From NCBI GenBank assembly GCA_900320405.1, contig OOHM01000002.1, positions 236,461 to 300,460 of the forward strand: 64,000 nt of DNA, read 5' to 3'. The translations under genes and the position numbers were made by a program. The DNA is from an uncultured Pseudomonadota bacterium (GTDB lineage: Bacteria > Pseudomonadota > Alphaproteobacteria > Rs-D84). Within the stretch, counting starts at the first letter, position 1; every line of letters begins with the position of its first letter. Below are positions 19,047-20,822 of the stretch, one piece after another. The notes beneath the pieces were generated by a model that made no database searches, had not been told where the DNA came from, and saw only the letters and a program-made list of their open reading frames with translations.

Positions 19047-19418
19047 ATGAACAAATTGATGGAATATCGGGATATTTCAAAAGACCTGCGCCAAAAAAAG
19101 GCCGAGATGCGGGCGGCGCGCGCCAAGATAACCAGTTATAACAAAGAATATTTTTTGGACAAACCTGAAGATTTTGGAATTTCTGCCTGTATAAATAAAT
19201 TCGAACGGGTTTATGGTATATGTATGGATCCAAATGCGTATGAAGATGGTGAATTTACAAAATTCTGTCCGTTATTTGGTCCCGAATTGTGCGCAGACAG
19301 AAAATGTCCAAAGTATCCGGAAAATATGGACTATATTGTTGCACGTGAAAGATATGATATGGCGGTGGCGCGTCGTCGTCAATTTATACGAGAATTGTTT
19401 AATAAAAAATCAAAATAG
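19047..19418 (+). CDS. Small Cys-containing hypothetical protein, paralogue A
   Basis: Strong RBS aaggaa. 123 aa. Shares 'KLxEYR...CINxF...KFC...C...ARRRxFIxxLF' with 19434-19799. Confidence 0.45.
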   Translation: MNKLMEYRDISKDLRQKKAEMRAARAKITSYNKEYFLDKPEDFGISACINKFERVYGICMDPNAYEDGEFTKFCPLFGPELCADRKCPKYPENMDYIVARERYDMAVARRRQFIRELFNKKSK

Positions 19419-19433
19419 TAAAAAGGACACAAG

Positions 19434-19799
19434 ATGACAAAATTAGAAGAATATCGTTTGTTGAATCAAAAGGTACGTAATGCGCGTCGGGCGTTAAATC
19501 GCGCCATGGCGGAAATTTCGCTTTGGTGTGACGGATATAATCTTGAGGGCTCGAATCACACGATGTGTATAAATCGTTTTGATGGCGTTAGGGCGAAAAG
19601 TTTGAGTGCGGGTCTTTTAGATGATAATGGACTAGTTAAGTTTTGTGATAAATTTGATTGCCATAAACTGTGCCAAAATAATAATTGCGAATATGAAGAA
19701 TTAAATTGGGATGCGGTTGCGGCACAATTCGCGTACGATGATGCGCGTGCGGCACGTCGCGCATTTATCGGCAATTTGTTTCGGGTACGAAAAAAATAA
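19434..19799 (+). CDS. Small Cys-containing hypothetical protein, paralogue B
   Basis: Tandem paralogue of the preceding ORF. RBS aaagga. 121 aa. Confidence 0.45.
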   Translation: MTKLEEYRLLNQKVRNARRALNRAMAEISLWCDGYNLEGSNHTMCINRFDGVRAKSLSAGLLDDNGLVKFCDKFDCHKLCQNNNCEYEELNWDAVAAQFAYDDARAARRAFIGNLFRVRKK

Positions 19800-19817
19800 A
19801 ACCCAAAGGAGAGGGCG

Positions 19818-20822
19818 ATGGCACACCAATTCTTTTTCAATCCATATATTTTGGACAACCTGGCGTTGCCATCGCGTGGTTTTGATGTGGTCCAGGATGT
19901 ATCTGAACCGCGTCTGCGTATGTATGTGACAAGTCGCGGTGTCAAAACATTTTTTGTTCGTAAACGAATCAAGGGTCGCGACCGGCGTGTTATTATTGGT
20001 AAATATCCCGATATGGATATCGAAGATGCACGCAGTGCCGTAAATTCTGTCCTGGCGGATGCGACAAAAAAAACACCGGTCAAACGCAAGAAAATACTGT
20101 TCCGCGACTTTGTTGCGTTGTATTTGAAAAATCGTGTACATCGGTCTGTTGGTTCATATGACAAATTGGTTCGGTCGATAAATCGGCATTTAAAACCGCT
20201 GTTTGATAAAAATATTTCTGATATCACCACGGATGATGTTCAAGACACAATCGCGAATATTACAGGTATGGCGATTGCCGAACGGATGCAGGAATTGTTG
20301 TTAAGTATTTTCCGCTATGCCATCGATACGGGATATATAAAAACAAATCCGTGTGCAACATTGCCGAAACCCAAACAAAACCGTCGGGTGCGACCACTTA
20401 CTAAATACGGGTTGCGGCGATTGGTTGAATCCATTAAAAATTATGAAGATGAAGTTATGCGGGCGGCATTTTTGATGTTGATTTATGGGTTTGCAACCAA
20501 AAATTTGGTGTTTTCTATGCAATGGGAAGACCTGGATTTCAATCGTTATATGTGGGGCGACCGGCCTTTGTCCGATATGGCGGTGGTATTATTACAGGAT
20601 TTACCCCAAGATGGTTATTGGGTGTTTCCGGGGCGCGGCCACGGGCATTTGACCGACCCGCGCCTTGCGTGGGCACGTGTCGTGGCGGATGCGGGTATCC
20701 CAAATTTAACAATGGACGATGTTTATAAATTTGTTGTGCATCGCCTGACCTGGGCCGGAAACCGCGAAGATTTGCGTAATAATATGAATGAATTGTTGGA
20801 AGACTTGCTGATTGATGAATAG
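19818..20822 (+). CDS. P4-type tyrosine-recombinase (integrase) homologue, apparently degenerate
   Basis: N-terminal DUF4102-like arm-binding pattern (LALPSRGFDV...RMYVTSRGVKTFFVRKR...IIGKYPDMDIEDARS). The box I Arg is replaced (GFATKN...WEDLDF). The HxLR is aberrant (VVHRLTWAG). There is no C-terminal catalytic Tyr before the stop. Confidence 0.5.
   Translation: MAHQFFFNPYILDNLALPSRGFDVVQDVSEPRLRMYVTSRGVKTFFVRKRIKGRDRRVIIGKYPDMDIEDARSAVNSVLADATKKTPVKRKKILFRDFVALYLKNRVHRSVGSYDKLVRSINRHLKPLFDKNISDITTDDVQDTIANITGMAIAERMQELLLSIFRYAIDTGYIKTNPCATLPKPKQNRRVRPLTKYGLRRLVESIKNYEDEVMRAAFLMLIYGFATKNLVFSMQWEDLDFNRYMWGDRPLSDMAVVLLQDLPQDGYWVFPGRGHGHLTDPRLAWARVVADAGIPNLTMDDVYKFVVHRLTWAGNREDLRNNMNELLEDLLIDE

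Follow-up and report, generated by a model that had tools for sequence, protein, structure and literature searches.

A catalytically dead P4-type integrase homologue kept between lepA and acpP in Candidatus Enterousia, accompanied by an orphan family of small cysteine-containing proteins

Gene order and transcription unit

The DNA analysed here is a 64-kb stretch (64,000 nucleotides of contig OOHM01000002.1, positions 236,461 to 300,460; the window hereafter) from Candidatus Enterousia (order Rs-D84), a lineage of gut bacteria. Between its lepA and acpP genes lie three open reading frames (ORFs): a 334-aa ORF at 19818-20822, which we name intL, and two small ORFs 5' of it, sm1 and sm2. Judged by its sequence, intL is a CATALYTICALLY dead P4-type integrase homologue. 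The two small ORFs belong to a Cys-containing family that, on the searches reported below, is an orphan with only one genomic address in the DNA examined. The genes of the locus are:

17242 to 19029, + strand: lepA (EF4), a 595-aa ORF whose orthologue has the GTP_EFTU and LepA_C Pfam domains
19047 to 19418, + strand: sm1, small basic Cys-containing protein of 123 aa, the distal copy (profile E = 9e-39)
19434 to 19799, + strand: sm2, small basic Cys-containing protein of 121 aa, the proximal copy
19818 to 20822, + strand: intL, catalytically dead P4-type integrase homologue of 334 aa (by Pfam, PHROG_1, alignments, AF2 model, Foldseek and dN/dS)
20942 to 21178, + strand: acpP, acyl carrier protein (tblastn identity 61-100% in 83 loci; PF00550 in orthologues)
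21307 to 22557, + strand: fabF, beta-ketoacyl-ACP synthase II (Pfam ketoacyl-synt in orthologues; synteny)

An earlier reading of this DNA from its sequence alone (the sequence-only reading) had described the three ORFs as lying head-to-tail after lepA, each with a strong ribosome-binding site, and we found the same coordinates and layout, with all three on the + strand. The ribosome-binding sites (AAGGA for sm1 and for sm2, AAGGAG for intL) stand 5-8 nt 5' of the ATG codons, and the genes are separated by 17 bp (lepA stop to sm1), 15 bp (sm1 to sm2) and 18 bp (sm2 to intL). No terminator-like site was found on the + strand in the intergenic spacers from lepA to acpP. A single weak + strand match falls within intL (20103-20117) and the first convincing + strand terminator lies 3' of acpP (21203-21231). 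The short spacers, the ribosome-binding sites and the terminator-free spacers point to an operon, of which lepA is probably the first gene and from which intL appears to be expressed. All three ORFs have homologues under purifying selection and are thus not chance ORFs. Base composition is uniform over the region, with no anomaly.

intL is a tyrosine recombinase homologue without catalytic residues

Pfam searches of intL matched Arm-DNA-bind_3 (PF13356) at residues 32-85 (E = 1.3e-7) and core-binding domains that together cover residues 95-182 (Phage_int_M, PF22022, residues 107-182, E = 6e-9; PF14659, E = 8e-6); the catalytic domain PF00589 was not matched. The integrase family PHROG_1 covers residues 30-298 (E = 5e-30). 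In an AlphaFold2 (AF2) model with a predicted local distance difference test score (pLDDT) of 82 the three-domain architecture is complete, comprising an arm-binding domain (residues ~1-90), a core-binding domain (~91-190) and an ex-catalytic domain (~191-334). The best Foldseek matches in the PDB were full-length lambda Int (1z1b, E = 2.4e-6), Brujita Int and Tn1549 Int. By homology, then, intL is a tyrosine recombinase, with an arm-binding domain, a SAM-like core-binding domain and a catalytic-type fold. These results bear out the sequence-only reading, in which the protein was derived from a P4-like integrase and its N-terminus assigned to arm binding, and they trace intL back to a P4-type tyrosine integrase that carried a DUF4102 arm-binding domain. 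Its domain order (PF13356, PF22022/PF14659, catalytic-type fold) is that of the P4/CP4-57-type integrases, of which the HPI integrase (PDB 3jtz/3rmp) is an example.

We also checked the catalytic residues of intL, by alignment with active P4-like integrases in which the catalytic columns were anchored on the solved structures of XerC-like 4a8e and XerA 5hxy. In this alignment the box-I arginine (TGAR) is replaced by T226, the beta-hairpin bearing the catalytic Lys is deleted, the H and R of the H-D-L-R motif are D300 and Y303, and the C-terminal LGH...Y (H/W...Y) tail is exchanged for a short Tyr-free helix. None of the six positions of the catalytic set R-K-H-R-H/W-Y is kept, and the protein is ~50-100 aa shorter than its active relatives. 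The substituted Arg and His and the missing Tyr segment had been noticed in the sequence-only reading; its reservation that an intact hexad might have been misaligned can be set aside. Across the intL family, the C-terminal domain has no conserved Tyr or Ser. Loss of the catalytic set, the Lys hairpin and the C-terminal Tyr segment separates intL from the P4/CP4-57-type integrases, and on these residues it fails as a functional tyrosine recombinase. With all six catalytic positions lost, intL can neither cut nor rejoin DNA by the known chemistry of the family.

The arm-binding and core-binding domains of intL are strongly basic, with net charges of +7.6 and +7.9. The ex-catalytic domain carries a net charge of -6 in the window, within a range of -9 to +7 across Enterousia, compared with -1 to +11 in the corresponding domain of active relatives (at least +5 in 7/8) and +7 to +13 in outgroup members of the short intL family (37-48% identity). 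An acidic domain suggests that the C-terminal role has possibly shifted from DNA clamping to something else, for example protein contacts.

intL is intact, under selection and fixed in position

A family-profile search of intL against 1.8 billion representative proteins separated a short intL family (327-353 aa plus long fragments; 262-419 bits) from full-length ordinary integrases, the best of which scored no more than 174 bits. The nearest full-length relatives outside the short family are ordinary integrases of 380-440 aa with 26-28% identity to intL. The best 120 homologue clusters listed share 65-99% identity with intL, measure 332-386 aa (332-337 aa in 118 of them) and derive from uncultured Alphaproteobacteria that live in animal guts. 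In GTDB species genomes a scan returned 295 intL-encoding stretches, and the best 80 of these belong to Candidatus Enterousia and related metagenome-assembled genomes from rumen and hindgut.

intL was intact in all 84 fetched copies (332-346 aa). The median pairwise ratio of nonsynonymous to synonymous substitution rates (dN/dS; 182 pairs) was 0.11 overall, with 0.075 in the arm domain, 0.148 in the core-binding domain and 0.091 in the ex-catalytic domain; the corresponding medians for fabF and lepA were 0.072 and 0.029. Because identities span 63-100%, this conservation is not an artefact of near-identical genomes.

The position of intL was compared in 80 distinct loci. Wherever a fetched Enterousia locus covers both flanks, the genes run lepA, gap, intL, acpP, fabF, and in every locus reaching that far lepA adjoins either the small-gene array or intL itself. 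In Candidatus Enterousia, intL is thus a domesticated integrase, a gene of the chromosome that is passed on vertically and fixed in place between lepA and acpP. Five of six divergent representatives of the short family (39-48% identity) keep lepA-intL adjacency, intL-acpP-fabF adjacency or both. Among them, the relatives at 48% and 44% identity have lepA-intL-acpP-fabF (with mltG called after fabF in the 44% locus only), the relative at 43% has lepA-intL, where its contig ends, and the relative at 39% has intL-acpP-fabF-mltG. In a relative at 37% identity the intL homologue stands between an acyl-ACP thioesterase gene and recR. The shared neighbours of relatives at 39-48% identity indicate that the mobile-element origin is ancient, and in the light of this synteny the idea in the sequence-only reading of a mobile-element remnant wedged between lepA and acpP is misleading.

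As the integrase of a present-day mobile element (prophage, island or integrative and conjugative element) intL also fails, its position being fixed and flanking repeats absent. Neither inverted nor direct att-like repeats were found bracketing the locus, and the only tRNA in the 64-kb window lies 12 kb from intL. P4/CP4-57-type integrases differ in this respect, since intL has no att site, tRNA or mobile-element context and holds one position throughout its lineage. No other tyrosine recombinase was detected in the window, and no close relative of the short family was found in viral contigs. Genomes of Rs-D84, the order of Enterousia, are mostly <1 Mb (PMC12306168). intL is an old exaptation, maintained by selection in streamlined genomes.

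sm1 and sm2 belong to an orphan family confined to one gap

sm1 and sm2 share 31% identity (BLASTP E = 2e-17) and have the invariant cysteines in common, which makes them paralogues; sm1 lacks the C and H of the FDCHxLC motif. Their isoelectric points are 8.8-9.1 (9.1 for sm1), close to the family median of 9.2. Word-based searches recovered ~45 homologous clusters, all unnamed and without Pfam domains, and searches with the small proteins of Pfam, NCBIfam, PHROGs, PADLOC and PDB profiles gave no match. The earlier description of the two proteins as paralogues of unassigned function therefore stands. No signal peptide was found in them.

Of the 142 + strand ORFs in the lepA-intL gap that reach 90 aa or more, 134 fell into one family after one profile iteration. 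All 137 profile matches in the window and 1.19 Mb of fetched loci lie in this gap and on the same strand, and no member was found outside it in the 1.19 Mb of flanking DNA, the 64-kb window or the viral contigs. Copy number ranges from 0 (seven loci, gap 21-34 bp) to 5 (gap 2.3 kb), and the three divergent relatives with lepA on the contig (43-48% identity) have no small genes. Since zero-copy loci still keep intL, the small proteins are lineage-specific additions. They are not relics of an element, an option raised in the sequence-only reading, but a copy-variable family found in the DNA searched at one spot only and without relatives in the viral contigs.

The family is diverse, 130 members falling into 77 clusters at 40% identity, and its four Cys columns are kept in 75%, 95%, 98% and 99% of 127 unique members. 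Median dN/dS for the family was 0.21. Among orthologues it was 0.13 in the Cys-rich middle, compared with 0.23-0.24 in the helices, so that diversifying selection on the Cys-rich tip is not supported; the tip is the most constrained part of the protein. An AF2 model of sm2 (pLDDT 80) has helices at residues 3-27 and 88-120 and a Cys-rich knob with C45, C71, C80 and C85. The small proteins are thus predicted to be helical hairpins, with two long antiparallel helices and the knob between them. Foldseek searches of the model against the PDB and BFVD returned only helical-hairpin look-alikes with E >1. Conserved cysteines in a protein with no signal peptide make a cytoplasmic zinc-binding protein the most economical reading, and the small proteins probably bind zinc.

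The sequence-only reading had suggested that the small proteins might be accessory factors, either regulators or proteins like recombination directionality factors (RDFs). Known RDFs include Xis, AlpA and Vis. Lambda xis-int and P4 vis-int have small basic proteins encoded directly 5' of int, co-oriented and tightly spaced, and sm1/sm2-intL is arranged likewise, with spacers of 15-18 bp, the same strand and, by inference from the gene layout, co-transcription. This part of the comparison holds. The part concerning fold does not: the small proteins have no Xis, AlpA or helix-turn-helix (HTH) signature, no winged helix and no Pfam match, their predicted structure is a helical hairpin, and their copy number is 0-5. 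Xis also acts on recombination, whereas at intL none is left for small proteins to direct. The Xis-like position directly 5' of intL in the same operon nevertheless makes the small proteins tentative candidates for accessory modulators of intL.

With a tyrosine-recombinase homologue beside a variable tandem array of small genes, the locus also resembles an integron. It differs in that the array is a single paralogous family, intL is inactive, and intL is co-oriented with the array and downstream of it. Spacers of 15-18 bp are too short for attC, and integron-like cassettes were ruled out by this lack of room, by the paralogy of all array members and by the dead integrase homologue. A connection with inversion or cassette systems in the window, suggested in the sequence-only reading, was likewise not found, there being no other tyrosine recombinase in 64 kb and no spacer long enough for attC.

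A conserved repeat pair precedes the acpP promoter

The 119-bp spacer between intL and acpP was examined in an alignment of 80 distinct intergenic sequences. Besides the ribosome-binding site of acpP it holds three features:

20830 to 20847, + strand: a pair of direct TTTGTTAY repeats whose starts are 10 bp apart (TTTGTTACcgTTTGTTAT), a candidate intL site by sequence and conservation
20854 to 20882, + strand: acpP promoter P2, TTGACA (20854-20859), a 17-nt spacer and TG-n-TAGTTT (-10 at 20877-20882), kept in the 80-sequence alignment
20886 to 20911, + strand: a short hairpin in the acpP 5' untranslated region (5'UTR; GTCAT...ATGAC), with a stem at this position in most of 79 folded loci

The spacer, with repeats, TTGACA-17-TGnTAGTTT promoter, 5'UTR hairpin and ribosome-binding site in that order, is strikingly conserved, and TTTGTTAT-N2-TTTGTTAT is nearly invariant across the alignment. 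In the window the first repeat copy reads TTTGTTAC. The repeats run into TATAAT, so that the second repeat plus AAT forms the extended -10-like sequence TGTTATAAT. Stems of the 5'UTR hairpin are compensatory between clades (GCCAT/ATGGC, GCCCC/GGGGC, GGTC/GACC). Rfam has no family for it, and an Rfam scan of 18900-21400 gave nothing meaningful.

With at most one mismatch, the repeat pair has one match in the window, 8 bp past the intL stop codon, and in the 1.19 Mb of fetched loci it occurs at 76 acpP sites and 18 other places; by a rough estimate, less than one match would be expected by chance. These 18 are of three kinds: promoters of putative outer-membrane-protein genes, one site 5' of an AMP-binding ligase gene, and, in one clade, a conserved element 3' of mltG. 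The shorter pattern GTTAT-N5-GTTAT has three exact matches in the window, compared with 0.27 expected from shuffles. It occurs at 35334-35348, 5' of the ORF at 35445-36263 (a putative outer-membrane protein), and further sites at outer-membrane-protein genes are L005:12157, L007:15516, L009:16902, L014:13550 and L030:6922 (locus:position in the fetched loci). These putative outer-membrane-protein genes encode a signal peptide and a C-terminal Phe, have no Pfam match and possess their own -35 and -10 after the repeat. An exact GTTAT-N5-GTTAT also lies within the sm1 coding region (19128-19142, - strand), inverted with respect to the acpP repeats and with no adjoining promoter elements; this match may be due to chance. 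GTTAT repeats 5' of rbfA or lepA, sought as a sign of autoregulation, were not seen.

The element of the third kind is AT-rich and intergenic (TTTGTTATAATTCGTTATAyTTTTTAATAATTAT...AAAAATAAC). It is conserved at L065:13930-13965 (- strand) and also occurs in L041-L044, L047, L061, L062, L069-L072 and L083, only in the clade with 63-67% intL identity. In L065, the one locus inspected, it stands between the mltG 3' end and the next gene, past a terminator-like hairpin.

In lambda the int gene abuts arm-type att sites, the P' arm-type sites of attP. The P' arm has tandem direct repeats one helical turn apart just past the 3' end of int, and the repeats between intL and acpP are alike in this. It is this likeness that leads us to propose that the arm-binding domain of intL binds the repeats.

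A candidate role for intL and competing explanations

We favour the reading that intL is an exapted, non-catalytic DNA-binding integrase to which lineage-specific small proteins have been added (probability roughly 0.75). intL would act as a non-catalytic, sequence-specific DNA-binding protein, probably bending or bridging DNA. Its arm-binding domain would bind the 10-bp-phased TTTGTTAT repeats that lie just past the intL stop codon, at the acpP-fabF promoter, and bound intL would modulate acpP-fabF and perhaps outer-membrane-protein genes, and hence envelope and lipid genes. The repeat pair at the acpP-fabF promoter is the most likely target, judged by its place and conservation, even if we regard this particular assignment as doubtful.

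Several observations weigh against our reading. The ex-catalytic domain, acidic here, may have ceased to clamp DNA. Small proteins are missing altogether from seven or eight loci and hence are not obligate partners, and in the predicted model they have neither the Xis nor an HTH fold. At the promoter, TGTTATAAT is a perfect extended -10, and one clade has TTGTCA 18 nt 5' of it, so the repeats are possibly just part of a tandem-promoter design. The distance from repeat to -35 is 6 nt at acpP but 10 nt at the outer-membrane-protein genes, and in more distant relatives a single GTTAT is left at acpP.

The small proteins may instead be independent of intL, for instance as zinc-binding stress proteins, nucleic-acid-binding proteins or toxin/antitoxin-like proteins, with the gap merely a permissive spot for tandem duplication. 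Such independence is a serious possibility, if somewhat short of even odds. It accords with the variation from 0 to 5 copies, with intL-bearing zero-copy loci, with outgroups that have no small genes and with the spread of 130 members over 77 clusters at 40% identity. Copy number also shows no correlation with C-terminal-domain charge in intL (rho -0.16, p 0.16), and the acidic domain proved to be a clade effect. Against independence, 137 of 137 detected members lie in one gap, on one strand and in tight operon spacing with intL, and none was found elsewhere in the 1.19 Mb of flanking DNA, the window or the viral contigs.

Alternatively, intL may bind DNA elsewhere and the GTTAT repeats may be tandem strong promoters only. 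intL could then work as a regulator (nucleoid-associated or global), or as a decoy that sits on attachment sites to keep P4-like elements from integrating. We consider this possible, although we lean against it. Tandem promoters, with TGTTATAAT as a perfect extended -10, would explain much of the conservation; the same design recurs with other spacing at other highly expressed genes, and the single repeat of distant relatives fits as well. However, the upstream repeat lies in a promoter spacer, which is normally unconserved, and is still nearly invariant in 80 sequences, and the best site in the window is 8 bp past the intL stop. Five of six divergent intL representatives, moreover, adjoin lepA and/or acpP-fabF, and the sixth adjoins an acyl-ACP thioesterase gene.

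A more elaborate form of our own reading is an as yet undescribed two-part module, in which intL is a DNA-bound scaffold on relic arm-type sites of envelope and lipid promoters and interchangeable small proteins attach to it as subunits that, lineage by lineage, confer sensing or specificity, or in which the pair occupies attachment sites and so excludes P4-like elements. We put this forward as an improbable, speculative extension.

It is very unlikely that intL still takes part in recombination, whether by non-canonical chemistry or as a structural subunit for another, active recombinase (for example in inversion or cassette control elsewhere). In its favour, strong constraint acts on the whole intL fold, the ex-catalytic domain not excepted. 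Heteromeric tyrosine-recombinase complexes such as XerC/XerD are known, and TnsF shows that an inactive subunit may be put to use (PMC10293859). Against this stand six lost catalytic positions, a deleted Lys hairpin, the lack of any conserved alternative nucleophile, invariant synteny and the absence of att-like repeats bracketing the locus. A partner recombinase was searched for in the 64-kb window and none was found.

Least tenable of all is the view that intL is a pseudogene or the decaying remnant of an integrated element with the small ORFs as leftover cargo: the lost catalytic residues, the shorter length (by ~50-100 aa) and the database names of intL homologues ('integrase family protein' or 'hypothetical protein') would suit it, but it is ruled out as a pseudogene by intact frames of nearly constant length (84/84) and dN/dS of 0.11 (0.09 in the ex-catalytic domain itself), and as a recent insertion by identical position in 80 distinct loci, adjacency kept at 39-48% identity, uniform composition and no tRNA within 12 kb, whilst viral contigs hold no relatives of the short family or the small proteins and the host genomes are streamlined, mostly <1 Mb (PMC12306168). 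Of the two options in the sequence-only reading, a domesticated DNA-binding derivative or a pseudogene, the data support the first.

Parallels and significance

The closest parallel that we found is TnsF of Tn6022-like Tn7 transposons, a catalytically inactive tyrosine-recombinase derivative that serves as a DNA-binding target selector (PMC10293859). Like intL it is a tyrosine-recombinase homologue whose catalysis is lost; TnsF has been retained for DNA recognition, and the same would apply to intL. TnsF differs in being transposon-borne, in working with TnsABC and in its build, which combines an N-terminal zinc-finger region with tandem core-binding-like domains. intL has the three domains of a P4-type protein, belongs to a core chromosomal operon and has no transposon genes near it. 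A check for tnsA, tnsB or tnsC neighbours, as in a TnsF-like Tn7 arrangement, found instead rbfA, lepA, acpP and fabF as the neighbours in all loci.

Among mobile-element enzymes, transposases and active recombinases provide well-documented cases of exaptation. To our knowledge, it is rare in bacteria for a phage-type integrase to be retained as a core gene without catalysis. In the literature on dead P4-like integrases as regulators we found no precedent beyond TnsF, and this one documented parallel is still borne on a transposon. Inactivated integrases retained as cellular genes are absent from the list in a review of mobile-element exaptation in prokaryotes (PMC8987985). Exapted non-catalytic recombinases are known in themselves; here one is coupled to an orphan small-protein family at a single address.

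That intL survived reduction to genomes mostly <1 Mb argues for an important cellular role. Reduced genomes such as those of this lineage would be expected to have few regulators. intL offers a natural case of what a scaffold of arm-binding domain, core-binding domain and catalytic fold does without its chemistry. For uncultured Alphaproteobacteria of the gut, it is also a concrete candidate link to the way in which acyl carrier protein, fatty-acid and outer-membrane genes are controlled.

Other features of the window

A 100-aa Cys-rich ORF (CGKC...C...C; 22560-22862) begins 3 nt past the fabF stop. It is fast-evolving, with a tblastn match in one locus only (61% identity), and in locus L001 its slot is taken by a 108-aa gene with only weak matches to the Cas4 C-terminal Cys motif (E 0.007-0.02).

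The genes of two paralogous secreted proteins share a duplication of about 250 nt (23003-23250 and 29184-29433, 82-91% identity) that takes in the promoter region and the N-terminal signal peptide. A 175-aa product encoded at 23168-23695 has a Cys-rich, knottin-like C-terminal tail with weak matches to conotoxin and toxin Pfam families. In related loci, paralogues flank the rbfA...fabF block.

On the - strand, 23751-24914 encodes a CcrM-like N6-adenine DNA methyltransferase (PF01555, E = 6e-64) that has a RAMA domain at its C-terminus, as would fit an alphaproteobacterial host.

Two perfect 46-nt direct repeats, each with a terminator-like hairpin, follow a tRNA-Pro(CGG) gene (32776-32852), at 32850-32895 and 33175-33220; the arrangement looks like an att-like duplication at the tRNA 3' end. 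Dispersed short repeats comprise a 61-nt pair with 89% identity (2944-3004 and 53611-53671; CGTCATCCCGGCGTAGGCCGGGATC...) and a palindromic 32-nt element present three times (30730-30761, 32956-32987 and 58978-59009; GGCCCCACAAAATTTGAAAAATTTTGTGGGTG), the copies of the latter being probably bidirectional terminators.

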